DNA of 47,732 nucleotides from Mytilus edulis (GCF_963676685.1 NC_092353.1:20195575-20243306), one strand, 5' to 3'. Shown: positions 6,232-47,017, counted from the stretch's first letter. Notes: generated by a model from the letters alone, not told the origin. Translations and numbers: made by a program.

Positions 6232-6243
6232 GTTTCTCTTACT

Positions 6244-9027: not shown

Positions 9028-9840
9028 GTTAAACCAATCACAACTTGATAATTTACCTGCGGTGCGATAATGTTGAAGATTGTTGCAAGATGTCACGTTT
9101 AGTGAAACATGCTTGTTAATCAAATGTTACACAGTCCTGAAATGATATATAGTATCAGTTGCATTGTTCCACCTCATCCCTACAATATTTACTGGGGTGT
9201 CGTTGTCTATACAACCTTCTTTAGTGGCTATTTGACACAACTTCGGACTATCTGATTAACAAGATCTCAGATTAAATCCCCCATACTAGTATACAGAAAG
9301 TTGTCGATTTACGGCAACACGATAGTTAGTCTGGAAAACTAGATAAAATGTTGTCGACGTACAAACCGTTGTATTAAATATGTGTAAAAACTATGATTCA
9401 GGTTAAAAAGTTTCAAAATTAAGGCATGTTAAATGAAGGAAGAGTAAGTGGTACCAAATAGAACTACCTTTAAATGGTTTGTCGAGAGTTGACTTGTAGG
9501 GTCGTTCGGATTCCCGAACCAAACAATCTTGTGGCATCTCTGTCATCCTCATGTTTCTCAACTTGTGAAAAATAATGTCCGCAGTTAATTGTTCTTAGGT
9601 AGTCATTCAGGCTTGGTTAATTGGTATATTAAAAATAAAGTCACAAACTGTTCTGATTGGTGTTGTAGCTGAGTCTTTTTTACGATATGGTGGGTTATAC
9701 TAGTGTACTCTGTGGTTTGCACGTACATTCATTTTCATCAACTTTTTCTTGATCGACGATTATATAGATATAAGAAGATGTGGTATGAGTGCCTTTGAAA
9801 CAACTCTTCATCCAAGTCACAGTTTATAAAAGTTAATTAA

Positions 9841-11984: not shown

Positions 11985-12083
11985 AGGTACATGTACCAGG
12001 CTTATAATTTAATATACCATACGCGCGTTTCAGATCCAGATTTGATAAAGAAAGACAAACAAGTACAAAGTTGAAGAGCATTG
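11985..12083 (-). repeat. Inverted copy of the hammerhead-bearing repeat unit, with the ribozyme core deleted
   Basis: On the minus strand it reads caatgctcttcaactttgtacttgtttgtc...tctgaaacgcgcgtatggtatattaaattataagcctggtaca. This aligns to the 30608-30745 unit, but the word agcgtcactgatgagtcttatgtagac is missing. Confidence 0.5.
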
Positions 12084-13114
12084 ATGTTACCCTGTATACC
12101 ACATTGCCTCACATTCTCATTAAGAAAAAATTCACACACCTAATTAAATGGGCATTCAAAAAATCAGAATGTGAATATATATGTTCAAACTCTGTTAGGT
12201 CATTTTTTAGTAGCAATAAAAAAAACTATGTTAATTGGACATGCTTTGATACTATATATGCCCTTGAATTTTTACTAGATAACATTTTTGTTCGCTTTGG
12301 GGATTCCGTATATCGTCAGATTATCGGAATTCCAATGGGGACTAACTGTGCACCACTTATTGCGGACCTGTTTTTGTATTGTTATGAGTTACAATTTATG
12401 ACAATAATAAGCAAACACCCATCGAAACAACATCTGATAAACAAATTTAATAATACTTTTAGATATTTGGATGATATTTTGGCTATCAATAATGACGACT
12501 TCAGTATGTATATTAATGCAATTTATCCTGTTGAACTTACTTTAAATAAAGCTAATACTAACAATGACCACTGCCCTTTTCTCGATCTTTATATCTATAT
12601 CACTAATGGAAAGCTGAATACTAAAATTTCTGATAAAAGGGATGATTTTTCATTTCCTATCGTTAATTATCCGTTTTTAGATGGTGACGTTCCCTTGTCA
12701 CCATCTTACGGTGTTTATATATCTCAACTTGTACGATTCGCTCGTGTATGTAATAATGTTTGAGATTTTAACGAGAGAAATTTATGTATTACTGAAAAAT
12801 TATTACACCAGGGTTTTCGATATCACAAACTAGTCAAAACATTTACTAAATTTTATCATCGGTATAAAGACATCATTCGTAAATATAGCTCAACATGCAG
12901 ACTTCTAATACGTTCAGGTATTTCACATCCAATTTTTTATGGAAATATTCTTTATAAAGCACAACGGTGTCAGTATTCACCTCAGAAACTTACAAAACCT
13001 TTGAATAGACTTCTTAAGAAGGGATATAATTACGATACTGTTGTCAAGTCATTAAAGATTGCATATTTTGGCGTTAATATTGAGTCACTGATAAGGTCTT
13101 TGCATCGGAACTAA
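12071..13114 (+). pseudogene. 5'-truncated reverse transcriptase fragment: RT motif B (GIPMGTNCAPLIADLFL) and motif C (YLDDIL), then a thumb-like C-terminal region. One in-frame TGA at 12761-12763
   Basis: ORF 12071..12763 continues in the same frame after the single TGA down to the TAA at 13112-13114, giving ~347 codons. The N-terminus, including motif A, is absent. The ORF starts exactly at the junction word gttgaagagcattg. Confidence 0.7.
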
Positions 13115-15779: not shown

Positions 15780-16210
15780 AACCAGAATTGCTTATCTGCC
15801 AAGTTAGGATGCAATAAGGGCATGCAGGATCCATACAATGAAGTCATGGTCAGATGAATCTTGTGGTGAAGGAAAATCGAGAAAAAGGTCGGATGAACAC
15901 TGCAAAACGGACTTGTAACCTTAATGCTCGTTCCATAGTCCAAATATATTTCATATACTGATTATAATATGTGAAAACACCTATTTCTGAAAACTTGATG
16001 TTGACTAATAAATCAGGACTAGGTCAGGTTGAACCTTGTGAGATTGACAAATATACCATACAAATATTACAAACATCAAATATAGTTGACAATATGCTTA
16101 TATTATCTGAAAAATAGACCTAACAAGAAAACACTACATTACAATGAACAGAACTATGAAAATGAGGCCTAGGTCAAGTTTACTCTGCAAGACTTCAATA
16201 ATTCCATATT
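15780..16210. repeat. Dispersed copies of the ~150-bp (a)aatgaggtcaaggtca family
   Basis: Examples are aaaatgaggcctaggtcaag at 16162 and caggactaggtcaggttgaacc at 16010. They share the words accaaatatagttgac and tatggtataagaaaa with the 22262-22736 array. Confidence 0.45.
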
Positions 16211-16554
16211 CCAAATACACGATACTGGATGCTGAAGTTGTGTATCTTTTTATCAACTGTACAGTTTTCCCTTTATTGATGTTTGTTTTATCATTTTGCT
16301 TTGTTTTTGCAGGTAGGTGTAGAGTTGTGATTAGGACCCAAGAGGTTTTTTACAATTTATGTTTTGCTTTGTTTACCCTCGTATTTAAATTTTACTTAAT
16401 CTGTACATTATCACCAAAGTGTATAGGTTATACTGTATGAACTATAACAAATAACGAATGTACTATTTAATACAAATTCTTTTTTGTTGGTATTTTTGTT
16501 TGAATTTTGAAGTCAGTTGTGTTGTCTGTAACTTGTAGTTACAAAACATATTAC

Positions 16555-16800: not shown

Positions 16801-17639
16801 TACAAAGTAATACATTGTTGACATCCACTGATATGATGGAAACAGCATACCAATGTCTCAGATTTCAACAATTTTTTTAAATTGATTTGGATTACCTCCC
16901 TTACACTGCTTTTAAATTGTCTCAATTGTCTTTTTACCAGAAAAACCTTTGTTTCCCCCTTTTTGCCCCTAATTTAAAAATGGTTAGAGCCATAACCCCC
17001 AAAGTCAGTTGTTGTGAAAGTACAATTTACACGACGTAACGTTATATTTATTCCCGTACTTTCACTTTCCCATTGTTGACGTCAACTTCCGCCCAGCAAT
17101 TGTATATATGGTTTTGAAGAGTGTTGTACACGTGGAAGAATAAGAAGACTGGAATTTAACTTGTTACATATTTTATAAAAGGTAAACAGCATACATTTTA
17201 CACACTATAGTATTTTACTAATCTCCGCATCAGGTTCTAAATATATACTTTGCCCTATTTATAGATTGTAGTTTCCCCTGTTAAATATAGCGCGATCGGC
17301 AATTCAAACACATTAGCGTTGGTTGTTCATTTGTTATTATTTATTCGCGTATTCCTGTGTGAATAAACTGTGTTGTATATTTATTGTGTATTATAATAAA
17401 GTATTGTATTTCCACATGTTGTTTGCATAAAAACGTAACTGCCGTATAAAGTTGTGGTAATTGTTTAATGAGATAAATACTTGTTGTGAAGCCCATGTAT
17501 GATTTTACCCGCTCGGACGTTTGTTCTATAAATAAGTAAGTTCATAAGCAGGTTCCTGACCATCCCTTTGTAGTATGAAAACTTGTAGTAAAATTTCTGA
17601 GAGATTCATACAATTCAACAAAAGTTAATGTTTAGAAAC

Positions 17640-17895
17640 TACAAAAATGCTTATTTGGGCTTTTTTTAAAGACCCTAATTCCAAACCCATAACCCCCCCC
17701 AACATCAATCCCAACCTTCCTTTAGGGGTTATAAACCTTGTGTTAAAATTTTATTGATTTCTTTTTACTTTTTATAAAATTATTATTCAGAAACAATCCA
17801 TCTTCAGACGACACTGATGATAAAGACTACGACAACAACAAAGTGATAGCAAGATACAACAAATTTTTTTAAAATTTTTGCGGTTATATAAACAT
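17640..17895 (+). repeat. Solo tail fragment of a composite satellite-carrier element: one cccaa..atcaatcccaaccttcc unit plus the (GAC)n/hairpin tail
   Basis: The tail gacgacactgatgataaagactacgacaacaacaaagtgatagcaagatacaac...tttttgcggttatataaa parallels the tails at 24466-24545, 26281-26362 and 42491-42560. Confidence 0.5.
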
Positions 17896-18689
17896 GAGAC
17901 CAAGAAAAAATCAGCTAAAAGTTAACAGGGATGGAAATTAAAGATAACAATTTTATCCTTTTCACTCCTCTATATTTATTGAACTCTACCATGTTAACTG
18001 GAAAGCAATTTCAAGAAGGCTGCTAAAGTTTGATTCCACTTTACCAAATACAGTAATTTAGATATCACCCTTAACTTCACACTGTAATACATAAACATAT
18101 ACCACAAAATACTGGTGTTTTTTCATATTAAAGTTGTTATAATGTACCTGAAATAAAATTTTTATTTTCATCTTGTTTTGAATATTTGAATAAATGTGTA
18201 TTTTAAGTGTATGATGTCCTGGATTTGAAATGAAATATTTCAAACATGTATTTCAAATGTCTTAAGAAAATAATAGGAAATAAATTAACAAAGATTTTAT
18301 ACAAATATGGCATGATTTATTGATTGTCGTATCCATAATGACCTGTGGTAAATATTTCCTACATATCCAGGACACAAACATATTCAATAATTAACAAAAG
18401 TATGTTATTTTGATGGTCACTGGTAAATCCTGATTAGGGATAGGGACTGTTTTTTAAAACTTGCAACAAGCCATACACTGATCTCTATTGCAGTAAGAGG
18501 TTTTGCATACACTGAAGAATAAACTTTTCTCAATTTTATATACATTCCTGACAGCTAACAATGTTTCTATAGTTATCCATGAAGTCACAAATATAGTACA
18601 AATTCATTAAACTGTACAAATAATTGGTAAATACATACAAAAAATAAATAAAAATTACAAAATGTAAACAAATATATCACAGACTTTAA

Positions 18690-18835
18690 AATAAATTAAT
18701 AAAAAATTATATATAAACACAATATCATAAATAATTAAACAAATATATATAAACACTATAATATAAATAATTAAACAATTATATATAAACACAATATCAT
18801 AAATAATTAAACAATTTTATATAAACATTGTACTA
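18690..18835. repeat. AT-rich ~42-bp tandem repeat x3-4 (atatataaacacaatatcataaataattaaacaa)
   Basis: Direct reading of the sequence. Confidence 0.7.
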
Positions 18836-19794
18836 TAAATGAAAAAAACTTTTTATAGTACTATGAACATTCCAAAACAATAATATTCAAAAGATTTTTC
18901 AGAAATGTCCACTTTTAATTCATCAAAACAATCCACATAATTTACGTTGGTCTTCATGAAAAAATAACCCAACAATCAAATATTGAATTTTGTGCAGCCT
19001 ACTGCACACATTTATAAATCACAAATTCCTGCAGAAAATAAGTAATTTTGCCATTTTCAGAACTAGAATTAATTTTTTTATTCTTTCTTTAATAAATTCC
19101 AATATTCAAATTTCATTACCAAAATTATGATTATTGAAGGGAGCAAAATCTTTAAAACCTTCTAAGACTTTTCAATCAGTCGCATTAAGGCAAAATTAAA
19201 TTAAATTAAGTAAAAAAAAATGTGAAATTTTATTTCTCAATATATTCTTATATATTATTTGCTATTTTGAAATGATAACAATAAATCATTAATTGACGGA
19301 GACCTTTTTTTTTAATCAATATTATTATTTTTTGTTTTTATTTTGAGTTGAAAAATAGTAAAATTGAAAAATTATATCATGTTTGTTTGACCAATATCTG
19401 CAACATATCTTTCATTTTGATCATTACATATAAGTGTATTCTACAGATATATACAACAACAGCAGTGTTTTACTACTTCTTTGGACAATATCACCTGAAC
19501 TAATTATCACATTCTTTTTATCATCAAATTGTAAATAGATAAAGAAAAACAAATGTGTAGCCTCATGTAAAACAAAGAATCAATCTCATTATAATAAATA
19601 ATCTGTTAAATGATATTAAAGTTGTATAACTGATCCCTGATCATAGATGATATGATGAAAATTAATCTTTTGTTCACAAACTCAACTTATCGCAATTACA
19701 ATTATAATGCCTAATAAGATAAAGACAATGAAGGTACAATTCTATACTATTGCATCAATTTTTATTTTGTTTTGCATAACCATGTCAAGTTAGT

Positions 19795-19985
19795 GACAAA
19801 AATCCAGTATCAAAGATGTTACAAGGCAACACCAAAGATCTTGGCTGCTACCTCACCCTAGAAGAGAGACATTATAAGTTGACACCTATAATCATGGCTG
19901 CTACCTCACTCCACGAGTGACATTACTGTGCAACACCTAACATCTTGGCTGCTACCTCACCCCATGAGTGACCTAATTCCAGCAT
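19795..19985. repeat. ~60-bp tandem repeat x3 (catcttggctgctacctcac(c/t)cc..gagtgaca)
   Basis: Direct reading of the sequence. It overlaps the 3' end of the minus-strand ORF 19923..20228. Confidence 0.6.
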
Positions 19986-21002
19986 ACTTGATGTCAATTT
20001 ATGCTCTTCCTCTTTCTGCTGATAGAAATTGACAGTTTTTATCATTCGACTATGCTTAGGAAAATGTTCATCATCAACTTGTTGCCTACCACCCTCTGTA
20101 CTTTCTGACAGCCATCTTGTCAGCTCTTTTTGCCAAAAGTTATTGCCTTTAACATGACTGGGAACCCAGTCTGGAGACTCCAATTGTATAACAACCAGCA
20201 AGGCAATACAGGTTGCCAGTAAAGTCATAATCTCATCCTGTACTTTTAATGCTGAAATAGAATATTGTACTTCGCTTGAAATTAAATAGTTACAATAAGT
20301 GTCAGCCCTCCAAGATGCTTAATTTCCATTTATTCTATGTTTTGTATACTGTTCTTTGTCTGTTTTTCCTTTTAATCATGGCATTGTAATTTTATTTTTC
20401 AACTTTTGAGTTTAAATGTTTCTTTGGTATATTTTGCCTCTCTTCTTCAACCTGCTGCATGATTTTTGTTTTGGTGACAGTTGTGCTTTAATAATTCTAA
20501 GCAAGTCCATGACAAATACTTATAGTCAAGATTTTTGATTAGTTAGCCATTTAATCATATTCATTGGCATTTTATAGCTGCAAACTTTAATCAAAGTTTA
20601 AAAATCAACTCCTGATTCTGCTAAATGGAGATAACATGAAACATATATAATATTAGGGTACAAACAAAAAATTGAACCTTTTCCTTAAGTTAATGTAAAA
20701 ACTGAATTTTCATGGAGTTTAAATTTCGTTTATTTGTGATGATACTGATCAGAAAATATCGATGAAATTAAAACTCCCATGAAAATTTAACCTTCATAAA
20801 ATATCACTTCCATTTAATGGAAACCATGAAATTAAATCCCCATGAAATCTTACATAGAGAAAAAACCACGAAAATTTGATCTCATGAAAATTAATGTTTC
20901 TAAAGTAAATGAAACTTGATATTCAAAACATGCCAATATTGAACTAAAACCTACTTAACAGGTTTTATCTGTTTGAAATAATGTTCCCAAGTTAATACTT
21001 AA

Positions 21003-21343
21003 TGTAATGCCTCGTTCACAAGTACATTTAATTCGAATTGAATTCGAATTGAATACAAATCAAATTAGCTTATTGCGTTCACACACGTTTTTTTTTTAAC
21101 TTTGAATTGATTCGAATTGGTTAATTCGAATTATCCAATTCGCATTAGAAATACGCTTTTGTTAATAGGAACTAAAAGGTAACATTGTTTGGACAGTAAA
21201 GTGAATTTGACGCGCATTGTAATTCAAATTAGAATGTAGTTAGGACGTAAAACCTTTTGAATGCGAATTAGTCCTTTTTGAATGCGAATTAAACTAATTC
21301 AAATTAGTTAATGCGAATCGAATTCCAATTATGTGTGAACTCA
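21003..21343. mobile_element. MITE-like foldback (~340 bp) with imperfect ~25-bp TIRs (taatgcctcgttcacaagtacatttaatt / aattatgtgtgaactcagcatta). The interior is rich in ttcgaattg motifs
   Basis: The terminal inverted similarity was found by eye. No clear TSD was seen. Confidence 0.45.
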
Positions 21344-21458
21344 GCATTAGTACAGTGTAACCTGTCTTATCTGACACCAGAGTATTCTGACACTCTGCTT
21401 AATCCAACATTTTTTTCTGGTCCTTTAGTGTGTAGGATTACACAGGTTACACTGTAAT
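21344..21458. mobile_element. Miniature foldback element (115 bp) with perfect 15-bp TIRs tacagtgtaacctgt / acaggttacactgta
   Basis: Direct reading of the sequence. The CAGTG TIR start resembles hAT-type ends, but no matching TSD was found. Confidence 0.5.
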
Positions 21459-32318: not shown

Positions 32319-33740
32319 TGTCATCGCAACTCCTCTCAAACCACACAACAGAATTTCACGAAACCTTTTCAGATATTAAGGACATACTCTGTAGTTGTGC
32401 ATATCGACGGGAAATTGCGATTCAATTTTTTTTCTAGGAGTTACGCCCCTTTGAACTTATTTACTTTAATGTACTACTGCAACAGTTTGTCATCGCAACT
32501 CCTCTGAAACTACACAACAGAATTTCACGAAACCTTTTCAGATAATAAGGACATATTCTGTAGTTGTGCATATCGACGGGAAATTGCGATTCAATTTTTT
32601 TTCTAGGAGTTACGCCCCTTTGAACTTATTTACTTTAATGTACTACTGCAACAGTTTGTCATCGCAACTCCTCTCAAACCACACAACAGAATTTCACGAA
32701 ACCTTTTCAGATAATAAGGACATATTCTGTAGTTGTGCATATCGATGGGAAATTGCGATTCAATTTTTTTTCTAGGAGTTACGCCCCTTTGAACTTATTT
32801 ACTTTAATGTACTACTGCAACAGTTTGTCATCGCAACTCCTCTCAAACCACAAAACAGAATTTCACGAAATCTTTTCAGATAATAAGGACATACTCTGTA
32901 GTTGTGCATATCGACGGGAAATTGCGATTCAATTTTTTTTTCTAGGAGTTACGCCCCTTTGAACTTATTTACTTTAATGTACTACTGCAACAGTTTGTCA
33001 TCGCAACTCCTCTCAAACCACACAACAGAATTTCACGAAACCTTTTCAGATAATAAGGACATACTCTGTAGTTGTGCATATCGACGGGAAATTGCGATTC
33101 AATTTATTTTCTAGGAGTTACGTCCTTTTGAACTTATTATACCCCACGCAACGAAGTTCCGGAGGGTATAATTTTTTGACCCGTCCGTCCGTCCGTCCGT
33201 CAGTCCGTCCGTCCGTCCGTCCGTCCGTCAGTCCGTCCGTCCGTCCGTCAGTCCGTCCGTCAGTCCTGTTTCTTGTCATCGCAACTCCTCTCAAACCACA
33301 CAACAGAATTTCACGAAACCTTTTTAGATGAAAAGGACATACTATGTAGTTGTGCATATCGACAGGAAATTACGATTCAATTTTTTTTATAAGAGTTACG
33401 CCCCTTTGAACTTATTTGCTTAATGTACTACTGCAACAGTTTGTCATCGCAACTCCTCTGAAACTACACAACAGAATTTCACGAAACCTTTTTAGATAAT
33501 AAGGACATACTATGTAGATGTGCATTTCGACAGGAAATTACGATTCAATTTTTTTTCTAGGAGTTACCCCCCTTTGAACTTATTTACTTTATTGTACTAC
33601 TGCAACAGTTTGTCATCGCAACTCCTCTGAAACTACACAACAGAATTTCATGTAATTTTGTAGATAATAAGGACATACTATGTTGATGTGCATATTGACA
33701 GGAAATTATTATTCAATATTTTTTCTTATACAATTTTTTT
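32319..33740 (+). repeat. 169-bp satellite array of ~8 units, interrupted at 33139-33275 by a second head
   Basis: The tcatcgcaac word recurs at 32321, 32490, 32659, 32828, 32998, 33276, 33444 and 33612, at periods of 168-170. The ORFs 32271..33331 are periodic artefacts. Confidence 0.85.
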
Positions 33741-34199
33741 TTCTTACACTTATTTAATTTCTGCAATGACAATGTGGGGACGTGGGGTATGTGAGCGTGC
33801 TCACTAAGGTTCTTTAATTAAAACTGGAATGTTGATCAAGTAATCTATATACTGCATAGACATCAACTATTACAGTAGTAATTTCAAACTGTATTGGGAA
33901 CCGAATGAAATTTTACTACAGAGTCATTTCCTATTGGTCAATCTAATAAAATTTTTGTCAGTTTTATTGTTTCATTGAGTAAATACAATAGCTATTGTTC
34001 TCTGTAAAGTTAATTTACTGGGACCCTTTTACTAGAAATCCATAACTCATTGATTAGTTTGCCTGAGTAAAAGTATTATCTTTTAAATAATGAAAATACA
34101 TGTTTGAACTCACAAAACGGCATGTAGTGTTGGATTTATTGAATATCAATGTTATGTTTTCAATCTGTTCAACACTGATTTTATCATAAGAATGTTTCC

Positions 34200-34440
34200 A
34201 TAATACAATTCTGACCCACTCACACTATCATTTTCTATGTTTAGTGGACTGTGACATTGGGGTCAAAACTTTAATTTGGCATTGAAATCAGAAGGACCAT
34301 ATCATAGAGAACATGTGAACTAAGCATTGATTGGACCTTAACTTCCTCAAAAACTACCATGACCCAAAACTTTAAACTGAAAAACTTTAATCTGAAGCAG
34401 GACAGACTGACAAAGGAATGGATGAATAAATGAACAGATA
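34200..34440 (+). repeat. Solitary degenerate copy of the 190-bp satellite family seen at 43915-44815, with a degenerate (GGACG)-like tail
   Basis: cattttctatgtttagtggactgtgacattggggtcaaaactttaatttggcattgaaatcagaagga aligns to cattttctatgttcagtggaccgtgaaattggggtcaaaagtctaatttggcattaaaattagaaaga. Confidence 0.5.
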
Positions 34441-34689
34441 TATTATACATTGCTATTATATTTGTGTATATTATGTTGTAAATTGGAAGTTATAAATAAT
34501 AATCAAAGCGCTGTAAGCGCTGAAGGCAGTTAACCAAAAACCAAGTTCTCAAACATGTAGGGGTAGGCAGAGGATTTAGGGGGGTGCCCCCCCCCCTTTT
34601 GGGAAAAAAAATTAGTTGCTTATATAGGGAATCACTGAAGCGTGACTGGAGCGGGTCCCCTCTTAGGATGGTCAGTGGGCCCCCACTTA

Positions 34690-35800
34690 TGAAAATTTCT
34701 GGATCCGCTACTGGGGGTAGGGTGACCCTAGGGACTTCCCCTACATTTCATTTTATTTGTTATATTGTCCCATACATGAATATATATGGTTTAGGGGGGG
34801 GGGGATCTCATTGGTTTCTAAGTTCTCAAACAGGAGGGGTAGGGTGACCCCAGGGACTCCCCCTATATTTCATTTAATTAGTTATATTGGCCCATACATG
34901 AATATATATTGTATCGGGGTGGGGATCTTGACCGTTTCCAAGTTCTTAAACAGGAGGGTTGGGGTGACCACAGGGACTTCCCCTATATTTCATTTGATTT
35001 GTTATATTGTCCCATACATGAGTATATATGGTTTAGGGGTGAGGATCTTGACCATTTCCAAGTTCTCAAACAGGAGGGTGTACAGTGACCCCAGGGACGC
35101 CCCCTATCTTTCATTTGAACTGTTATATTGTCCCGTACATGAATATATATGGTTAATGGTTGGGGATCTCAACGGGTTTCAAATTCTCAAACAGGAGGGG
35201 TGGGGTGACCCAAGGGACTCCCTCTATATTTAATCTGATTTGTTATATTGTCCCATACATGAATATATATGGTTTAAGGTTGGGGATCTCGAACATTTTT
35301 AAATTCTAAAACAGGAGGGTTGGGGTGACCCCCAGCGACTCTTCCTATATTTCATTTGATTTTTCATATTGTCACAAACATGAATATACATGGTTAAAGG
35401 GTGTGGATCTCGACCGTTTCCAAGTTCTCAAACAGGAGGGTGGGGTAACTCTATGGACTCCCCCTATATTTCATTATATTGTCCTATACTTGAATATATG
35501 CAGGGGCAGATTCAGTTCGGGGGGGGGGGGGGGGGGGGGGGGCGCGTGCACCCCCCATAAATTCGCAAAGCATGGGTTGTTCTCAGCTTAAAGAATATTC
35601 CGATAATTTTACCTCAATATTTTTTTAGCCTCGCTCTGCTCGGAGAAAATTTAAGTTAGCACCCCTCCTAACCTAAAATCCTGGATCTGCTCCTCATATG
35701 GTTTAGGGGTGGGAGCTCGACCGTTTCCAAGTTATTAAACAGGAGGGGGTGGAGTGGCCCAAAGGATGCCACCTATATATCATATGATTTACTTACATTC
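34690..35800. repeat. ~120-bp satellite x9 (ggggt(a/g)gggtgaccccagggactccccctatatttcat...cccatacatgaatatatatggtttagggg...gtttccaagttctcaaacaggag). A degenerate leading copy sits at 34560-34690
   Basis: Units start at ~34705, 34836, 34957, 35078, 35199, 35318, 35436 and 35740. The ORFs 34584..35591 are periodic artefacts. Confidence 0.85.
35519..35542 (+). repeat. Homopolymer (G)24 followed by cgcgtgcacccccc
   Basis: Direct reading of the sequence. It lies inside a satellite unit; shorter G11 runs are at 34793-34803. Confidence 0.9.
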
Positions 35801-36389
35801 AGGTATATATAATATAGTTGCATTATTTGTGAAAATAAAGAAACTTTCAGCTACTTTAATTGACCCTTCAAAACTGAGATAAAAAAAATAATCCTTTGAA
35901 ATTGCAGTACTATGTTTACACTTTAAAAGCATCTCACATGCATTATCATCATTTATCACTGATAAAGAAAATTTAGACTGTGACCATGAACATGTATATT
36001 GTTAGATATACTGTTCCCAGCTGTCACGTTGTATTGGATTTTTAAATTAAAATTTGTCAAAAAGAATTTTGAGTTTCTGCATAAAATATTTTTTTGCTTT
36101 TTCTTTCTTTTATATATATCTTTTGATTTACAATTCTAGTGTTTATATTCATTTACCATGCATAGATGTATTTTTTTCACCTGCGTAATTGATCGCCAAA
36201 CCCGGAATTACCCTTATCCGCTTCCGGGATCGGATCCGATATTGTAAAATTTTGTCTTCACGGCCGCCATTGTTATGTTTTTACAATGTTGTTTTTGTCA
36301 ATCAGATACAATTTTACTCGAATTTATACAATATTTGTCGGCTATTTTCTGTATAAAGCTAGCGATTGAACAAAACGAACATCGCTGTC

Positions 36390-36458
36390 ATGAATAATAA
36401 TGATAAAAATAAGTTTTTAGCTCGTTTAATTGGAGACTTTGGTGAACATGGTGAAAAG
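36390..36458 (+). CDS. Candidate first coding exon (MNNNDKNKFLARLIGDFGEHGEK) ending at a GTAATG donor
   Basis: ATG at 36390, an open 23 codons, and a donor at 36459. Upstream there is a palindromic CCGGAA/TTCCGG ETS-like word at 36203-36232. The evidence is weak. Confidence 0.2.
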
Positions 36459-37244
36459 GTAATGGTTTGCCAAGTTAACTCTTATTTTCTTTCAAGTGGA
36501 AGGTGACTACATCGGGCATAGCTAGAAACCAACTATCCTAGGCGAAATTCCGCTTGCAAAAGTGGAAGGTTGCGGATCTCGGACCACTGCTAATTTGCAC
36601 ACCTGCCTCCAAATTGAAAAGATACGAACATTTCTTTTTCTAATTTGAAATTGCCGCCAACAGCATGAACAGTTGAACTTATTATATAATAGACTACTGA
36701 CGTAGTTGTACTACGTATTGATGACAAACAATATTCCTACGACTTTTGCCATTTGGGAAATCTAAACTACTTGTCTTAGGAGATTTTCGGCGATTAAATA
36801 TTTCATACAATTGTTCTTTGACATCTTGGCCGAAAGTACAAGTCATAATGAACTACACAAGGGTTCTTAATAAGCACTACTTCCTATGTGTAACTTTAAA
36901 ACTTTTGGATAAATCGACGATCATTTAAGGTTTTTCTGATCATATTTTTTGTAATCCAGAATAAAAAGTATTAAAAAAGTGTTCAATTAGTTATATATAA
37001 CATAGTAGCGAGCTAGATAATAACAATGGCAAGTATTTCAGCATTTATTGGGAAGAACACAAATCTAGGGTGCTCGCATAATGCAGCTTAACTGCATAAA
37101 AATACAGTTAAAAACCTATGTTAGAAAGTTAAGGACATTTTATATAGTAACACACAACCTCATACAGGCATGCGTTGGAAATCAATCCTCAAAATGTTGA
37201 TGGTATTCCATAACTGAAGAATATATATAACCCAGACAACATAC

Positions 37245-37344
37245 CTTAAGTGATGGTTCTTTGGTCTGCGCTAACATTTCACGAGTCAAGTCAACAGATA
37301 ATCTTCTTGCGTCACTTAAATAACCTTCATCAAAGGACCTGTTC
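37245..37344 (-). CDS. 100-nt exon (…Q NRSFDEGYLSDARRLSVDLTREMLAQTKEPSLK) spliced in phase to the exon at 37911-38871
   Basis: The acceptor cttgcag is at 37345-37351 on the minus strand and the donor GTATGT at 37244. CA from the upstream exon plus G completes the CAG codon, and the frame stays open. Confidence 0.4.
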
Positions 37345-37910
37345 CTGCAAGATATATACAATACATTTCACACTGATTTTAGTGATAGGAATACACAAGC
37401 AGAGCATCGAAACTCCTAAATGATTCACCAGCATAATTTTCATTAACAACTTATAGTACTTTGGATTTATTGTTATTTTTTAATTTTGTGGGTTAGGGTG
37501 AATCTAAAATTTATTTTTTCAAAGAAAATCAACTTTTGTTTACACTTGTATGCAGACTCGGGCTTTACCACGAAATTAAATATCCTAAAATTGTAAGCTT
37601 TATACCCATCCACTAAACTTGGTACACACAACAATAAATGAACCTGTAGTACCTGAAAAGATTACTTTATCGTCAAAATAAATAATGAAAATATGGTCAA
37701 GTTTTTAGATGACAGTTTTTTTTAACAATATGCACAATTTACAACGACTCTATAGATCCAATATAGCAAAAAAAATGATTAATAAAAAATTGATAATTTT
37801 CTGTTCTAATTAGTTAAGCACTAAACAATTGTTTAAAGATGCATAAATTTACTTTGTCTCACAGAACACTTTGTTCATCAGTAGAACATGAAACTCCTTG
37901 CATTACTTAC

Positions 37911-38871
37911 TGCAGTACAGAGGCTGGGGAACCCCATGATTTGGACTGAAAGCCTAAGGACCCAGACATCCGTCTGGCAGGAGCTCTAGGCCTGGGTGCT
38001 CCTGGTATCTCCTCAGCCTGTAGATGTGGTTGAGTTGGTGTTATTTTGGATCTCTGTTGCTCTGGTATTGTTAGAAAGGAGGATGGTGTTTTATTACTGG
38101 TATCTGTTTTAACAGCTGCTGGAGAGGGTGTTGGCACTGGTCTCCTTGATATCTGAGGCACCTGTGAGAGTGAAGGTGGTGTCACCCCTCCTCTAAACCT
38201 TGTATTGCCAGCTAATTGGGGTGAAGCAGTGTCCCAGTGACTTCCACTTTCTGATGAACTTGTTGTTTGTTGTCTTGGAGTTGCTGAGCCACCCATACAT
38301 ATTTTACTATCAGGTGATCCCATACAGCCAGACTTTTTTTGGTTTTCATTATACTTTGATAATGAAATTGGTTTATGCTTTTCAGGACTTGCATCAGAAA
38401 CCATTATTGCAGGAGCAGGCGACTGAATACTTTGGGTTGACGATGCTTGCATTGCCTGAGGTGATGCTCGTTGCATACTTTGGGCAAAAAAATCTTGGCG
38501 TCTCTGAGGTGATGTGGGTTGCATCATTTTTGGTAACGATGCTTGCTGTATCTGAGGAGATGCTGGTTGCATCATTGCAGGTGCCAATGCTTGCACTTGC
38601 TGAGGTGATGTTAGTTGCATACTCTGGGGATGCATTACTGGACTTCTCTGACTTACTGGTGCTGTATACCCTGTGACTAAATCTGTCTTCCTGCTAGAGG
38701 AGACTGAGGATGACTGTTTGCATTTCCTGTAGCTAGGTGTAGACTGTGGCATGTGAGCTATGCCTCCATGTACTATTGTACGGGCTGGAGCCATGTCTGT
38801 ATCACCTGTGTGTATCATATCTGATTCCAGTTGAGTTGGTTTTGATACAAAATCCTCTTTTACTATGTTTC
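37911..38871 (-). CDS. Large Gln/Ser/Pro-rich exon (~320 codons; repeated MQPxSPQ-type motifs) of an unidentified host gene
   Basis: ORF 37907..38818 in the track. The frame stays open upstream to the acceptor ttttttttag at 38872-38881 on the minus strand. The 3' end is CTGCA|GTAAGT, a donor at 37910. Composition is GC-richer than the flanks. Confidence 0.5.
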
Positions 38872-39124
38872 CTAAAAAAAATATTGTACATATTACTAAA
38901 CTGTAATAAATTGTAACACAGAAATCTTTTTACAACAAACCAAATAAAAAATATTAAATACAATCTTTCTTAGACTCATTTATTAATCCTGCTGTTACTT
39001 TGATCAAATCTTTATGACAGTTTCAATGAGACTATTTAATAAAATAACAGTGTAACAATGTTATTCCTGCCTTACTAACCATGTTTGATTTAAAAGTCAC
39101 AAAAGGTTATACTACTGGTATCAC

Positions 39125-39300
39125 ATAAACTAAACTTTATCAATGATCAGCAACATCAAGGTCAAGGTCAGATAAACCCTGGAAGACAGAAATGTACAAC
39201 TTGCAATCATTTAATACATCAAATATAGTTAACCTATTGATTATAGTATTTGAATATCAGACAAAAATAAGAAAACTTAATAGCCAATGAACCAAGAAAA
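39125..39300. repeat. Copy of the ggtcaaggtca ~150-bp family; a further partial copy is at 39630-39700
   Basis: caacatcaaggtcaaggtcagataaaccc...catcaaatatagttaacctattgattatagtatttgaatatcagacaaaaataag. Confidence 0.5.
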
Positions 39301-39989
39301 TGATGTCAATGTTAAATGGGAGGGGGGGGGAGGAGTTTTTTTCGGGACGTCAGGATCAGATGTTTTTAAGCTCAGGATTTCAGGATTGATCCTTTTGGGA
39401 TCCAGGAATTCTTTTATTGAATTTTGAATTTAAATTTCTTTAAATTTGGGACCTCAGGATGTTTTTTAAGCCCAGGATTTCTGGATAAGGACCCCTCCAG
39501 CCCCTCCTCTTAGATGAAACCTGCCAAACTGACATGTACCTCTTTCCATAACATTCCATTTTATATTTAATACACAACATCAAGTTGACCCTTTGCTTAT
39601 AGAATCTGAAAAAAAAACCTAAACACAAAACTTTAACCTTAATCACTGACTCTTGAAATGAGGTTAAGGTCAGGTGAACCATGTCTGATCTGCCTATGTA
39701 TAGTGCAGATGAGATAAATTTTTGAACATCCCCACTTTTTAACTAGTCTATAAAGACATTGCTGATATAAACCTGTATGTAAAACAAATACATTCTTGCC
39801 ACCACTATAATAATTGGAACCTATTGAATCTATATTCATGTGACTTTTAGTATGTTATAAATCAAATATGAGAATTGGAGTCTTAATCGGTGAACATGAA
39901 TTTGACTGTTTGACAGCTAATGCCCCTTTAAAGAATGAATGTGTTCTTAAACTTAAAAACTTAAATATTTTAAATTGGACATTTACCTA

Positions 39990-41235
39990 TTATGGTCCAA
40001 TATCCAAAATCTAAATACATGGTAAGATTCAGCATATCAAAGAACCCCAAGGATTCAATTTTTGTTGATATCAAACAAAGTTTAATTTTGGACCACGATT
40101 TGGACAAACTTGAAAAACTGGCCCCATAAGCAAAAATCTTAATACAAGTTTAGATTCAGCAAATCAAAAACTCCAAGGATTCAATTTTTGTTGAAATCAA
40201 ACAAAGTTTAATTTTGGACCTTGATTTGGACCAACTTGAAAACTTGGCCCATATTCAAAAATCTTAGTACATGTTTAGATTCACCATATTAAAGAACCCC
40301 AAGAATTCAATTTTTGTTGAAATCAAACAAAGTTTAATTTTGGACCCTGATTTGGACCAACTTGAAAACTGGGCCCATAATCAAAAATCTTAGTACATGT
40401 TTAGATTCAGCATATCAAAGAACCCCAAGAATTCAAATTTTGTTGAAATCAAACAAAGTTTAATTTTGGACCCTGATTTGGACCAACTTGAAAACTGGGC
40501 CCATAATCAAAAATCTAAGTACATGTCTAGATTCAGCATATCAAAGAACCCCAAGAATTCAATTTTTGTTAAAATCAAACTAAGTTTAATTTTGGACCCT
40601 TTGGACCTTAATGTAGACCAATTTGAAAACGGGACCAAAAATTAAGAATCTACATACACAGTTAGATTAGGGATATCAAAGAACCCCAATTATTCAATTT
40701 TTGATGAAATAAAACGAAGTTTCTGACCCAGAATGAATGTGTTCTTAAACTTAAAAACTTGAAAACTTGGCCCATAATCAAAATTAGATTCACCATATTA
40801 AAGAACCCCAAGAATTCAATTTTTGTTGAAATCAAACAAAGTTTAATTTTGGACCCTGATTTGGACCAACTTGAAAACTGGGCCCATAATCAAAAATCTT
40901 AGTACATGTTTAGATTCAGCATATCAAAGAACCCCAAGAATTCAAATTTTGTTGAAATTAAACAAAGTTTAATTTTGGACCCTGATTTGGACCAACTTGA
41001 AAACTAGGCCCATAATCAAAAATCTAAGTACATGTTTAGATTCAGCATATCAAAGAACCCCAAGAATTCAATTTTTGTTAAAATCAAACTAAGTTTAATT
41101 TTGGATCCATTGGACCTTAATGTAGACCAATTTGAAAACGGGACCAAAAATTAAGAATCTACATACACAGTTAGATTAGGGATATCAAAGAACCCCAATT
41201 ATTCAATTTTTGATGAAATAAAACAAAGTTTAATT
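39990..41235. repeat. ~125-bp satellite array of ~10 units (…ttagattcagcatatcaaagaaccccaagaattcaatttttgttgaaatcaaacaaagtttaattttggaccctgatttggaccaacttgaaaactgggcccataatcaaaaatct…). It has an internal ~480-bp higher-order duplication: 40260-40735 is repeated at 40760-41230
   Basis: Periods of 125-127 were measured between successive cagcatatcaaag words. This is the same family as the arrays at 23471-23990 and 25357-25810. The ORF 40397..40645 is an artefact. Confidence 0.85.
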
Positions 41236-41578
41236 TTGGACCCTTTGGGCCCCTGATTCCTAAACTGTTGGGACCAAAACTCCCAAAATCAATCCCAACC
41301 TTCCTTTTGTGGTCATAAACCTTGTGTTTAAATTTCATAGATTTCTATTTACTTAAACTTGTTTTTTTTTTACTTTTGATAGTTTGGAAAAATGTTTTAC
41401 ATTGTTTTAAATAAAATATGAGAATTTGAGTCAAATCAGTGACCATGAATTTGGCAGCTAGTGCCCCTTTAAGAAATATATATATATTAAAGTGTTTAAG
41501 CACAATATTTTCTTGATACTTGGGTCTTCTAAGTGAGGATAGAAATAAGGTGCCCAACATGATGACAGTATAATATTT

Positions 41579-42560
41579 GTTCAAACAGAACAGTTGGGGT
41601 AAGTATGGACACAACATTTAAGCTTGATTCAGCTCTGAATTTGGATTGTGATTAAATATTTGACACAGCATATGTTTCTGACACAGAATGAATGTGGTCT
41701 AAGAACTTTTTTTTTTTTAAATTTGACATTTACCTTTTGGACCCCTTTGACCTCTATGTGGACCAATATGATATCAGGGCCCAAAAATCAAAATCTAAAT
41801 ACATGGTTAGATTCAGCATATCAAAGAACCTCAATAATTCAATTTTTGATAAAATGAAACAAAGTTAAATTTTGGACCCTTTGGACCTTAATGTAGACCA
41901 AATTTGAAAACGGGACCAAAAATCAAAAATCTAAATACACAGTTATATTCAGCGTATCAATGAACCCCAATGATTTAATTTTTGATGCCATCAAATAAAG
42001 TTTAATTTCAGACCCTTTAAACCTCAATGTGAATCAATTTCAAAATGGGGCCAAAAATCCAAAACTTAATACATTGTTAAATTCAGCATATTAAAGAACC
42101 CCAAAAATTCAAAAATATAATCCCATTGAAATTGGTCAAGAAATAAGTTATTTACACAAAGTATTAGAAAAGTATTGTTTTTAGCCCCTTAATTATTCCT
42201 AATCAGTTAGGGCCATTACCCCCAAAATCGATCCCAACCTTCCTTTTTCGGTATGGAACCTTGTTGTACAATTTCAAAAAGATCCATACACTTACAAGTT
42301 ATTGTCTGAAAATTTATAAAAATGCTTATTTTGACCCGTTTAAAGGCCCTTATTTCCTAAACTGTTGGGACCATAAACCTCAAAATCAATTCCAACCTTT
42401 CTTTTGTGGTCTCAAACCTTGTGTTTAAATTTCAAAGAGATCCATTTACTTAAAAAGCAAAGTTACTGTTTGTAAACTTAATGTCTTTTCAGTCGACGCA
42501 GGCAACGACATGATACCAACATACGACCACAAAAATTTTTGGTGGTTGTATAAAAAATTA
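41579..42560 (+). mobile_element. Composite non-autonomous element, copy 3: a partial head matching 22783-22900, ~130-bp units, ~120-bp cccaaaatcgatcccaaccttcc units, and the tail cagtcgacgcaggcaacgacatgataccaacatacgaccacaaaaatttttggtggttgtataaaaaatt
   Basis: Co-linear with copies 1 and 2, but more diverged. Confidence 0.45.
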
Positions 42561-43914
42561 AGACCAATTTGACACTAAACGTATTTAAAACAGAGGTTAG
42601 ATGCTTGACAATAAAGGGCATTCCTTCTCTTCTAAATGACAATTGAGTCCTTGATGGGAGTTGCTGACTAATTTGAGGAGTAATATCTAACTCTGAAATC
42701 GCTCTCAAGCTATCAATTTTATTACATATTCATATAAACAAAATGTGGTATGAGTGCCAATAAGACACAATGTTTAAAAAGATTAATATTATTGGTCAAA
42801 GTACAGCCTTCATTTCAAACAGGAACACCAACAATTTAATCTTTATAAAAGATTAGAAATGAGAAACATATCCATAAATAAATGCACTACTTAAAATTCT
42901 AGGATAAATTGTATTATAAAAAATAAAACAAACCTGATTCTTCAAACAACATTTTGTAAACAATAGTCCCCAACCCAGAATAATATCCAGGAGTGAGATA
43001 ATAACACTGATCAATCTATCAGTCCTCTGTTGAACTGTTAAAGGTACATTATTATGGAACCCTTCACACATGAATAAACAGCCTCAGGTGTGATCTTGTT
43101 CCCGAGTAGTTTTTACAGAAATCAAAATACCTACTCAGTAAAAAAAAAGTCAGATCATAAGTAAGTGTTATAACTTCATGGATGAGCGCCTTTTTGTAGT
43201 TAAACAGATACAAGTGTGGACACACATAAATGTCTTACTAGAGTCTTTGCTTTGCCTAAATAATGATATTACTGTGAATTGACTGCATTTGTTGCTCAAC
43301 TTATAGCAGGTCATTTAAAATTGTGACCCAGTTGCAATTTGTTTTATCAAATCAGCCTTTTCAAATCGTATGAAATTTAACCCAATTCAGAATTGCCATA
43401 AAAAATAAAGTCAAGACATCAGAGTGCAAGGTGAGAATATAAAGGATACTTTCAATTCTATAAAAATTTTATTTCTTTTATCTTTAAAACTTTTTTTTAT
43501 CATTATTTATTTCTATAAAACTTTAAACTCCACTTTAATGGTCATATAAAATTGTATCTTAAAAAGTTTCTATGCAAATTGTCATTGTGAAGAGTCATTC
43601 AAAAAGGTAATGAGAATTTTAGAATTGCTATAAAAATGTCCAAACTTAGCTTTTATAACTTTTTCTTATAAAAAGTCTTCTATATTCCTAAGAATAAGAC
43701 ACCAGTTTAAATTAAAACAGATTCTATTCAGTGAAACATATGTAAAATTACAATAAGATTTTAATAAGTTTCCATGGGAGTTAATTTAAAATCCCTGATC
43801 TTTTGAAATATTGTTCTTATCTCCCCTTAAAACTTTAAGAGAAAATGTTAAAGCTTAAAGATAAACAACAAGAATGTGTCCAAAGCACACAGATGCCCAA
43901 CTTGCACTATCCTT

Positions 43915-44815
43915 TTCCATGTTCCATGGACTGAAACTCCCACTTTCATTTTCTATGTATAGTGAACCGTGAAATTGGGGTCAAAAGTCTAATTTGGCAT
44001 TAAAATTAGAAAGATCATATCATAAGCAACAAGTGTACTAAGTTTCAAGTTGATTGGAATTCAGCTTCATCAAAAACTTCCTTGACCAAAAACTTTAACC
44101 TGAAACTCCCCCTTTCATTTTCTATGTTCAGTGGACCGTGAAATTGGGGTCAAAAGTCTAACTTGACTTTAAAATTAGAAAGATCATATCATAAGCAGCA
44201 AGTGTACTAAGTTTCAAGTTGATTGGACTTCAGCTTCATCAAAAACTACCTTGACTAAGTTTCAAGTTGATTGGAATTCAGCTTCATCAAAAACTTCCTT
44301 GACCAAAAACTTTAACCTGAAACTCCCCCTTTCATTTTCTATGTTCAGTGGACCGTGAAATTGGGGTCAAAAGTCTAACTTGACTTTAAAATTAGAAAGA
44401 TCATATCATAAGCAGCAAGTGTACTAAGTTTCAAGTTGATTGGACTTCAGCTTCATCAAAAACTACCTTGACCAAAAACTTTAACCTGAAACTCCCACTT
44501 TCATTTTCTATGTTCAGTGGACCGTGAAATTTGGGTCAAAAGTCTAATTTGGCATTAAAATTAGAAAGATCTTATCATAAGCAACAAGTGTACTAAGTTT
44601 CAAGTTGATTGGACTTCAGCTTCATCAAAAACTACCTTGACCAAAAACTTTAACCTGAAACTCCCCCTTTCATTTTCTATGTTCAGTGGACCGTGAAATT
44701 GGGGTCAAAAGTCTAATTTGGCATTAAAATTAGAAAGATCATATCATAAGCAACAAGTGTACTAAGTTTGAAGTTGATTGGACTTCAGCTTCATCAAAAA
44801 CTACCTTAAAACTTT
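43915..44815 (-). repeat. 190-bp satellite x5 (…ctcccactttcattttctatgttcagtggaccgtgaaattggggtcaaaagtctaatttggcattaaaattagaaagatcatatcataagcaacaagtgtactaagtttcaagttgattgga(c/a)ttcagcttcatcaaaaact…)
   Basis: Units start at ~43915, 44095, 44285 (with a 45-bp internal duplication), 44470 and 44650. Confidence 0.85.
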
Positions 44816-44905
44816 AACCTGAACGGACGGAAGAACGGACGCACGGACGAACGGACGCACAGACCAAAAAACATAATGCTCCTCTGGGGCATAAAAAAGA
44901 AAATG
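44816..44905 (-). repeat. (GGACG)n microsatellite plus an inverted carrier head (reverse complement cttttttatgccccagaggagcattatgttttttggtc + (CGTCC)n)
   Basis: The reverse complement aligns to the heads at 32233-32318 and 33139-33275 (ggagg(g)tataatgttttt(t)g(a)c + CGTCC repeats). Confidence 0.6.
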
Positions 44906-45056: not shown

Positions 45057-46020
45057 TTTGATTTTTTTTTAGCAACTTCATGAAAACTGCTGAAAGAACT
45101 TTTGAGTTATTGTTCAATAAGTGGAAAATTCGCACTTTTTAATGAAAAAAACCCATAACTCAGAAATGTAATATCTAAATATGAAAATCCATAAGGGAGC
45201 TCACGTCAATAGACATAAACAATAGACTACTTTTGAGTTCATCCGTCACCAGAAAAAAACTTGTCAATTAGGTGCGCCTTTGCGACGTCGTTTACCAGAT
45301 AGAGGGGATCGCCTGTATCCCTGCACTATTTATGTTCATCAAGCGTCTTAGTGATCGTCATTGTGGAGGATAAACTAGAAACAATTTTTGTTTTGTAAGT
45401 ACTTAATCACAACTCCCTAATGACAAAGTACAGCAGTGCCGATTGTCAATTATGAGAATTTAGTTTGCCGAATAATTTGTGCAGTATAGTATTATAATTT
45501 TCCAACCACTCGCTCAACATTAGAATGGAAATGATGAAGCCCCTAAACGCACAAATGATGTTCACTAAAACCAGAGTTTTTGACGGAACTGCATCAAACT
45601 CGAAAGTTGTCTATTCACCCAAGTTTCATGAAAACAGCTCAAACCATTTTTGAGTTAATGTCTGAAAAACTAGAAAATCCCCTTTTTTTGATGAAATAAA
45701 ACCCATAACTCAAAATGTAAAATCCAAAATTTATAAAAATATAAAGGGAACTAACATTAATAGATATAAACAATTCATTAAAGTTTCATGAAAACTTCTC
45801 CAAGCATTTTAAGGTAATTGTCCGAAAAAAAACTAGAAAAATCCCCCTTTTTTGATGAAATTGTAGCCCCATAATTTTGAAACATAAAATCCAAAATTTA
45901 TGAAAATCATAAGGGAGCTCACATCAATAGATATAAACAATTCACCAAAGTTTCATGCAAATTGGTGAAAGAGTTTTTGAGTTAATGTCCGACATGTTGA
46001 CGACGGATGAACAACAGGTT
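45057..46020. repeat. ~185-bp repeat family: one unit at 45057-45240, and tandem units at 45615-46020 (…tttcatgaaaacagctcaaaccatttttgagttaatgtc(c/t)gaaaaactagaaaatcccc…cataactcaaaatgtaaaatccaaaatttataaaaat…)
   Basis: Direct reading of the sequence. Inverted 11-bp words gttcatccgtc (45237) and gacggatgaac (46003) bracket the block. Confidence 0.6.
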
Positions 46021-46212: not shown

Positions 46213-46537
46213 CTGCAATAAGATTTTTAAATGCATTTTGTTGTCATGCATCATGCCCCCAATGTAATACTTCAGAAAATATATATCAGTAAACAGAAGT
46301 AAAAGTCTGAAATATCCCCAAAAAATCCTCAAATGTTTAAATTACTGTCAATCTATTATGAAGTCTATTTGTGATGAGAATTTAAAAAAATCAATACTTT
46401 TCCAATTTTTCATTTTTTTTTTACTGAATTCACCTAAACCTGTAACCAGATGTTGTTACTCCAAAAGTGTATCTAAATTTTGAAACTGTCAGTAGATTGT
46501 TCTCATTTTAGCAATTTCCAGACTTTTATACTGCATT

Positions 46538-46720
46538 GGGCAGCAGAAATGGGAGGTCTTCACCTTCAGATTTGCCTTTTTCCCCCCAGATTCCATTTTG
46601 GGCAGCAGAAATGGGAGGTCTTCACCTTCAGATTTGCCTTTTTCCCCCCAGATTCCATTTTGGGAGGTCTTCACCTTCAGATTTGCCTTTTTCCCCCAAG
46701 ATTCCATTTTTGGGCTGAAA
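46538..46720. repeat. 72-bp tandem repeat x2.6 (gggcagcagaaatgggaggtcttcaccttcagatttgcctttttccccccagattccattttg) in the intron between the two P-like exons
   Basis: Direct reading of the sequence. The ORFs 46480..46731 are artefacts. Confidence 0.8.
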
Positions 46721-46790
46721 CTGCAACTTAAATCTGAGAAACATAATATGCCTTAAGCCTTAAGTAGAGTCAACATGAATTAATTTCGAA

Positions 46791-46898
46791 ATCAATATCA
46801 AATAGATAAATCAATATCAAATAGATAAATCAATATCAAATAGATAAATCAATATCAAATAGATAAATCAATATCAAATAGATAAATCAATATCAATA
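46791..46898. repeat. 19-bp microsatellite x5.5 (atcaatatcaaatagataa)
   Basis: Direct reading of the sequence. Confidence 0.85.
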
Positions 46899-46906
46899 AG
46901 ACTTAC

Positions 46907-47017
46907 CACCTTCAAATAAATTAAAACCCATGTCTGTATCACTTTCACTTTCTTCCCTTTCCAGAATAGATGTATTTCTTGCGTTATATGCATATTTTTC
47001 CAGCAGTACCGGTTTCT
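46907..47017 (-). CDS. Exon encoding a ribosomal-stalk-P-protein-like acidic tail (…LLEKYAYNARNTSILEREESESDTDMGFNLFEGG), paralogue A
   Basis: The acceptor ctctttacag is at 47018-47027 on the minus strand and the donor G|GTAAG at 46906. ORF 46893..47093 in the track. Phase 1 at both ends. Confidence 0.35.

Follow-up and report, generated by a model that had tools for sequence, protein, structure and literature searches.

Copies and anatomy of the repeat family

The window analysed here is a stretch of 47,732 nucleotides of Mytilus edulis DNA (GCF_963676685.1 NC_092353.1:20195575-20243306), which is AT-rich (31-39% G+C) and dense in short satellite-like arrays (46 rows in the output of Tandem Repeats Finder, TRF). 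Between positions 17,640 and 42,560 it contains copies and remnants, all on the minus strand, of one family of repeat elements with internal tandem arrays, which are in all likelihood non-autonomous Helentrons (HINEs). The original prediction, made from the sequence alone, had described four tails in this region, each composed of a GAC-rich tract, an imperfect hairpin and an A-run on the plus strand; all four are present and can be aligned with one another over ~230 nt. The 14-nt motif TGCGGTCGTATAAA occurs in exact form on the plus strand at 24528-24541 and 26346-26359, with two mismatches at 17879-17892 and with three at 42541-42554, and the same 14 nt are found unchanged in the opposite orientation at 22754-22767 and 24854-24867; four exact copies of a 14-mer within the window are far beyond chance. 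When the window was compared with itself, 22726-23255 matched 24825-25355 with 98.9% identity over 531 bp, which corresponds to the predicted shared head, and 23523-24550 matched 25353-26369 with 94% identity. Weaker matches covered 17559-17784 and 39993-42454, and a piece of the head of 122-136 bp recurred, as predicted, at 41588-41718. TRF and the self-comparison also placed the same two satellite types upstream of three of the tails. The unit lengths required revision: the cccaaaatcaa satellite, first put at ~120 bp, has a TRF unit of 159-161 bp, while the second type, first put at ~125-130 bp, is indeed present and has measured units of 126/135 bp with a 261-bp higher-order period.

The modules of the element are displayed by c1 (Table 1), which is 99.3% identical to the 2007-bp copy L004 found in a metagenome and is one 161-bp unit shorter. 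According to the HINE/DINE-1 convention, the end carrying a subterminal inverted repeat (subTIR), a short inverted repeat (IR) and a microsatellite is the 5' module (PMC7492417 section 7; PMC4067079). Because the order of modules in our family matches that of published HINEs, we read the element 5' to 3' on the minus strand, and the hairpin tail, which had been predicted to be the 3' end, is taken as the 5' module. On this strand the two ends read TTTTTATACGACCGCA...TGCGGTCGTATAAAGCTACGCCCTGCGGAGCATCTGGTT. The subTIRs, TTTATACGACCGCA (5') and TGCGGTCGTATAAA (3'), match at 14/14 positions in c1, c2, L001 and L004 and are offset, lying 2 nt from the 5' end (TT, within the T5 string) and 25 nt from the 3' end. 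The 5' subTIR of c1 folds with the IR into an 8-bp bulged stem, and the IR variants of other subfamilies are likewise complements of the subTIR, with the fuller forms GGTCGTAT, GTGGTCGTAT and TTGCGGTCGTAT. The 3' palindrome starts directly after the 3' subTIR, is separated from the 3' end by 8 nt and folds into a 3+3-bp stem. Both the subTIR/IR stem and the palindrome fold as single-stranded DNA in c1 and c2; the left-module stem forms in the copy with its tail at 42557 and not in the one at 17892.

Table 1. Features of the repeat family, the host array and a second HINE-like family in the window
Feature	Position	Strand	Remarks
Putative HINE copy c1, near complete, 1815 bp	22729..24543	-	5' end 24543, 3' end 22729, fixed by junction tables
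c1 5' terminus: T5 + 14-nt 5' subTIR, TTTTTATACGACCGCA on minus strand	24528..24543	-	identical in 9/9 young copies, unrelated flanks before
c1 IR CGTCGTAT (minus strand)	24503..24510	-	complementary to 5' subTIR, 18 nt downstream
c1 (GTC)n microsatellite, left module	24471..24491	-	length ~3 to ~14 units among copies
c1 159-161-bp repeat array, 2.7 units	24023..24455	-	TRF; GGGCCC sites in each unit
c1 126/135-bp repeat array, ~3.9 units	23483..24011	-	TRF; 261-bp higher-order period
c1 long right module (~700 bp)	22768..23482	-	unique sequence (head) + 35/83-bp internal repeats at 23246-23454
c1 3' subTIR TGCGGTCGTATAAA (minus strand)	22754..22767	-	exact inverted copy of 5' subTIR
c1 17-nt 3' palindrome GCTACGCCCTGCGGAGC	22737-22753	-	kept in 7 copies, unrelated flanks after
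c1 terminal ATCTGGTT	22729-22736	-	after palindrome
Putative HINE copy c2, 1533 bp	24829..26361	-	A5 end (+ strand) at 26361
c2 palindrome	24837-24853	-	
c2 3' subTIR	24854-24867	-	
c2 126-bp array	25353-25841	-	
c2 161-bp array	25852-26271	-	
c2 microsatellite	26280-26309	-	
c2 IR	26321-26328	-	
c2 5' subTIR + T5	26346-26361	-	
Old 3'-truncated relative	17554..17892	-	degenerate 5' module + ~1.4 units of 161-bp type, 68-79% identity
Further fragment of the old relative	16939-17007		
5'-truncated relative 3a	39932..41359	-	
3a, one 161-type unit	41235-41359	-	
3a, 126-bp array	39993-41251	-	
3a, weak right-module remnant	39932-40021	-	
Diverged relative 3b	41588..42557	-	5' module with T6 + extended hairpin
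3b, 161-type repeats	42178-42477	-	
3b, 126/136-type repeats	41735-42112	-	
3b, right-module piece	41588-41718	-	
Host 148-bp repeat array around c1/c2	22283..22728, then 24544-24828 and 26362-26463	+	nhmmer
Second family, truncated copy	32236-33138	+	left module, short (CCGT)n, 4.9 units of 169 bp
Second family, full copy	directly after truncated copy	+	TATACCCCACGC...GGAGGGTATAA; (CCGT)21 33181-33266, repeats 33273-33726
Second family, full copy, 3' end	33782-33790; 33791-33804	+	GTGGGGTAT; palindrome GTGAGCGTGCTCAC

The order of the arrays is fixed: in every copy the 126/135-bp array comes after the 161-bp array, with constant orientation, phase and junctions. The two unit types were handled as distinct, their homology being borderline (local score 20, against 12.9 ± 2.2 for shuffled sequences with a maximum of 21). 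The 161-bp unit, with its GGGCCC sites and 161-bp period, presumably resembles the ApaI satellites of Mytilus. Copy c2 lacks the stretch 23256-23522, and the short variants described below (L005-L010) have lost the right module altogether. The open reading frames (ORFs) of the element are short or represent read-through of the repeats.

The inverted tail fragments that the original prediction had placed next to the heads are found at those positions, but they are the 3' subTIR and the 3' palindrome of the same element and not the end of a neighbour. The juxtaposition of tail and head therefore provides no evidence that these elements insert at each other's termini, as had been proposed, and 285 bp of an unrelated host repeat separate c1 from c2. 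Besides these two copies, the family has left three older relatives in the window, of which the diverged one (3b) has neither the 3' subTIR nor the palindrome. In relative 3a the 126-bp array has grown to 9.8 units. No 126-bp or 161-bp array of the window is found outside such elements and remnants, which supports the predicted role of the element as the vehicle of these repeats and also the idea that arrays may expand once inserted.

Termini, dispersed copies and insertion sites

Copies outside the window were obtained in two ways. A metagenome scan with the hairpin pattern yielded the true copies L001, L003 and L004, and a search with a spurious ORF running through the 126-bp array yielded L005-L010, six contigs of the ENA assembly ERZ6864376, which are shorter deletion variants. 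L002, from the same metagenome scan, was rejected as a chance match in a coding-dense bacterial contig. The longest copy, L004, comprises 3.7 of the 161-bp units and ~14 GTC units. Seeds taken from the termini gave nothing further: a 22-mer had no match in viral or prokaryote genome contig collections, an 18-mer had none in the viral contig collection, and the 17 bacterial matches of the 18-mer in prokaryote genome contigs, a number equal to the chance expectation, were discarded, as none extended past the seed.

Junction tables fixed both ends of the element. The 5' end TTTTTATACGACCGCA is preceded by nine unrelated sequences in the nine young copies, all of which have a T-run of exactly 5, and the 3' end ...GGAGCATCTGGTT is followed by seven unrelated sequences in 7/7 copies. 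The original prediction had reckoned with freely varying termini should the arrays be plain satellite DNA; the termini proved to be fixed. It had also called for a check of target site duplications (TSDs), and no direct repeat was found across the flanks of the five complete copies (c1, c2, L001, L004 and L006).

The dispersed copies, found on metagenome contigs with unrelated flanks, are 96-99% identical. Pairwise identities were 99.3% for c1 and L004, 98.7% for c2 and L004 and 98.2% for c1 and c2, with L001 at 96-97% to the others. Private substitutions number 8 in c1 and 15 in c2, only 2 are common to both, and the deletions differ, those of c2 being its own. Since c1 and c2 are each nearer to L004 than to one another and have few substitutions in common, the pattern is that of a recent star-like burst, apparently from one L004-like master. 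The 5' flank of L001 (1-85) corresponds to the internal 83-bp-repeat region of another copy of the family (94% identity to window positions 23394-23311), so that one element is nested inside another.

The repeat that surrounds c1 and c2 is a 148-bp family (core CATGAAAATGAGGTCAAGG), all of whose arrays are on the plus strand: 15829-16219, 22283-22728, 24544-24828, 26362-26463 and 39128-39695, the last being split at ~39300-39510 by a 200-bp insert rich in G-runs and CAGGAT. At each of the three loci with these elements it is present, either upstream or surrounding them. We rejected the possibility that it is part of the element: the flanks of L001, L003-L008 and L010 do not contain it, and uninterrupted units represent empty sites. 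On the element strand, the junctions of the empty units read GTTAAG-TTATT-GTGTTTTGG, GTTTAG-TTTTTTGA-TTTTTGG and GTTAAG-TTTTGGTGG, compared with GTTAAG-[element]-GTATTTTGG where c1 is inserted and GTTAAGA-[element]-(T)GTAATG where c2 is. All junctions are compatible with T|TTTT...GGT|T, the empty sites being of the form GTTAAG-TT(A)TT-GT, although these sites are paralogous only, so that host and element Ts are inseparable. The comparison with paralogous empty sites supports the proposed boundaries, a T-rich target and the lack of a TSD.

Probable assignment to the Helentrons

Taken together, the anatomy and the termini make it probable (about 0.85 in our estimate) that the region contains copies of one non-autonomous, DINE-1-like Helentron family, mobilised by a Helentron. 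Every structural feature of HINEs that could be tested was found: subTIRs, a 5' end within a T-string, the IR, the microsatellite, oriented arrays, a 3' subTIR followed by a palindrome, and no TSD. The original prediction of a Helitron/Helentron-like satellite carrier was thus right as to class, and wrong as to polarity and the relation between head and tail. The hallmarks of canonical Helitrons, a 5'-TC start and A^T insertion, are absent, whereas those of Helentrons are present. The original prediction had also counted terminal inverted repeats as evidence against such a carrier; inverted repeats, however, are what defines Helentrons, and here they occur without a TSD. An origin as a short interspersed element (SINE) or other retroposon finds no support: ARAGORN detected no tRNA gene, Rfam gave no match, the A-run has a constant length of 5, and a TSD is lacking.

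Several observations weigh against this assignment. No autonomous Rep/Hel partner with these termini was found, and the ORFs of the window, compared with Pfam, gave neither Helitron_like_N nor PIF1 nor an endonuclease family, only sub-threshold noise; this comparison was made within the window and comprised the 15 ORFs of at least 110 aa, minus three inside tandem-repeat arrays, plus some shorter ones. The 3' subTIR, at 25 nt, is nearer to the end than the 38-60 bp of mite HINEs. The arrays have the long non-repetitive module on their right side, whereas in Cg_HINE the variable spacer is on the left. The hairpins are thermodynamically modest (z-scores of -0.6 to -2.2). In the 3' palindrome 92% of cells preserve pairing, yet covariation does not reach significance against shuffles (6 distinct sequences); its variants keep pairing via G-T or one A-T double change, and all the changes are CpG transitions. 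Finally, as the empty sites are paralogous and not orthologous, insertion into a TT site is inseparable from Ts that belong to the element.

Inverted repeats near both ends would also be accounted for by a MITE (miniature inverted-repeat transposable element) that bears tandem repeats and is mobilised through cut-and-paste by a DDE transposase; its 2-bp TSD would then be the terminal TT, which reads AA on the plus strand. T-runs flank every copy on both sides and are formally compatible with a TT duplication of the kind proposed for DTC84 and pearl, which were first read as MITE-like with TT/AA duplication (PMC3879986). The inverted repeats of our family, however, are subterminal and asymmetric, at 2 nt and 25 nt from the ends, and the ends are not inverted copies of each other (TTTTTATAC... 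and ...CATCTGGTT). Beyond the possible Ts there is no TSD, and the constancy of the 5' T-run at 5 in 9/9 copies points to Ts that are element sequence rather than a duplicated target. Since the arrangement of IR, microsatellite and 3' palindrome is the HINE signature, and pearl-type elements have since been re-assigned to Helentrons (PMC7492417; PMC4067079), we regard a MITE as improbable. The orientation implied by the original prediction, namely a canonical Helitron-type non-autonomous element on the plus strand with the hairpin and A-run as its 3' end, is in our opinion very improbable. It could draw on a hairpin near one end, on the lack of a TSD and on the CTGG that precedes the terminal TT on the minus strand and fits CTRR, and the 17-nt imperfect palindrome 8 nt from the minus-strand 3' end fits Helitrons and Helentrons alike, canonical Helitrons having one of 16-20 nt at ~11 bp from that end. 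Yet on the plus strand the element starts with AACCAGATG and ends with TATAAAAA, that is, with neither 5'-TC nor 3'-CTRR, and on the minus strand there is no 5'-TC either and an invariant TT follows the CTGG. Moreover, the hairpin consists of the subTIR and the IR and is followed by the microsatellite, which is the published HINE/DINE-1 5' module, and the flanking bases do not fit A^T insertion, the minus-strand 5' flank ending in A in only 5/9 copies.

It could further be argued that there is no mobile carrier at all, only plain satellite DNA or a local segmental duplication in which a 2.1-kb higher-order repeat has two periods, c1 and c2. The two copies have the same orientation, are 2.1 kb apart and interrupt the 148-bp unit at the same position, and their 5' flanks contain an identical 27-nt block, located in the most conserved part of that unit; the identity of position and block suggests either duplication or a target preference. 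On the other hand, outside the conserved core of the unit the flanks are only ~55-65% alike, and the same exact ends occur in unrelated flanks on at least 7 other contigs. The dissimilar flanks and the star-like pattern of substitutions, with only 2 derived ones in common, favour independent insertion of c1 and c2, and a recent tandem duplication is disfavoured on the same grounds. For the family as a whole an origin without a carrier is already contradicted, and we find it barely credible. With mobility by a Helentron as the preferred explanation, it is conceivable, although we consider it unlikely, that the element targets one position of the 148-bp satellite and that c1 and c2 inserted independently at GTTAAG|TT in two units, with a third unit between them, giving rise to a 2.1-kb composite higher-order repeat. 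If true, Helentron integration would here be sequence-specific and would link two repeat families that are unrelated.

We infer the polarity, the enzymology and the single-strand mechanism of this family as follows. The non-coding element would be acted upon in trans by the Rep/helicase(-endonuclease) of a Helentron located elsewhere in the genome, an enzyme for which the subTIR and hairpin signals at both ends would serve as recognition sites. Copying would proceed via a single-stranded, rolling-circle-type intermediate into T-rich sites, without duplication of the target. The internal arrays would be carried along, their unit number being altered by slippage or unequal exchange. New loci would thereby be seeded with short satellite arrays, of which one has grown to ~10 units in the window.

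Neighbouring repeats and known systems

Two further HINE-like families are found in the window. A second family, unrelated to the first, occupies 32236-33811 on the plus strand, where a 3'-truncated copy is directly followed by a full one (Table 1); such a head-to-tail arrangement with a truncated inner copy has been reported for Helitrons. A third, at ~43865-44898 on the minus strand, has T6 + ATGCCCCAGAGGAGCAT, a GTCC/GTGC-type microsatellite (44864-44823), 169-bp repeats (44807-43931) and a 3' TTGGGCAT with a palindrome; a related solo unit is present at 34218-34382. Other short arrays are located at 27666-27859 (31 bp x6.3), 34715-35475 (120/241 bp x6.3), 45613-45992 (167 bp x2.3) and 46536-46918 (62/49/19 bp). 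A cluster of long ORFs at 2484-9126 (minus strand) had no Pfam match in our scans except a weak one to CXC/TCR, and database homologues of its 320-aa ORF (5269-6231, minus strand) carry PF20231 (DUF6589); the cluster probably represents a large gene, either orphan or transposon-related, and not a Rep/helicase. The ORF at 12008-13111 (plus strand) has no Pfam match and contains, by eye, a reverse-transcriptase-like motif (GIPMG...YLDDIL), and is likely a decayed retroelement fragment. A 303-aa ORF rich in S, P and Q (37907-38818, minus strand), which overlaps a 48-bp tandem repeat at 38427-38628, may represent either a coding exon of low complexity or an ORF that arose by chance.

Among known elements, Cg_HINE of oysters (PMC7492417) has a left module made of a 5' subTIR, a complementary IR and a microsatellite, satellite-like central repeats in fixed orientation with units of ~150-180 bp, and a right module with a 3' subTIR and a palindrome, and it leaves no TSD, as in our family, which apparently shares its insertion into T-rich sites as well. 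Two consecutive arrays, as found here, are also known in Cg_HINE_10_13 and Cg_HINE_11_12. The likeness is one of architecture: no sequence similarity is shown, and the subTIR strings of our family do not occur in the legible text of the supplement. The microsatellite is a (GTC)n trinucleotide here and mostly a GTCY/GTCC tetranucleotide in Cg_HINE (motifs of 3 nt to 8 nt are reported), the IR spacer is 18 nt as opposed to 1-12 bp, and the long variable or unique segment separates the arrays from the right module, whereas in Cg_HINE it separates the microsatellite from the arrays (PMC7492417). DINE-1/HINE elements of Drosophila and mites (Thomas et al. 2014, PMC4067079) likewise have subTIRs of 12-15 bp, with the 5' subTIR 2-4 nt from the end, an IR 3-22 bp from it, a microsatellite, central repeats and a short 3' stem-loop, and they have T strings at their boundaries and leave the target site unmodified. 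They differ in the distance of the 3' subTIR, given above for the mite families, and in a palindrome of 5-10 bp as opposed to 17 nt here, and for them autonomous Helentron partners are known (PMC4067079), in contrast to our family.

The bivalve elements pearl (CvA/CvE/CvG), DTC84 of Donax trunculus and MgE of Mytilus galloprovincialis (PMC3879986; cited in PMC7492417) are modular as well, with core repeats of ~160 bp (1-6 in number) between two flanking modules, short inverted repeats and AA/TT at the ends. Older papers on bivalves show such elements in reverse: the repeats precede the microsatellite, and AA is treated as a putative TSD (PMC3879986). This corresponds to the plus-strand orientation of the window. 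Pearl and DTC84 have a tetranucleotide microsatellite of the ACGG/ACTG type and MgE has none (PMC3879986), compared with (GTC)n in our family, and all of them have one array instead of two. The second and third families of the window (ACGG/CCGT type, 169-bp units) look closer to pearl/MgE than the family studied here.

The architecture and the phenomenon have already been described in oysters, clams and flies, and the family itself is real, sharply bounded and recently active. Its value lies in providing, for repeat annotation of this genome, an exactly bounded, recently active HINE family with two different arrays, for which L004 (2007 bp) can serve as a master-like reference. A search for an autonomous partner and for polymorphic insertions requires the polarity and ends as corrected here. 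The family would be a further example, beyond those of oysters and flies, of satellite DNA seeded by Helentron-type elements, and it leaves existing knowledge unchanged.

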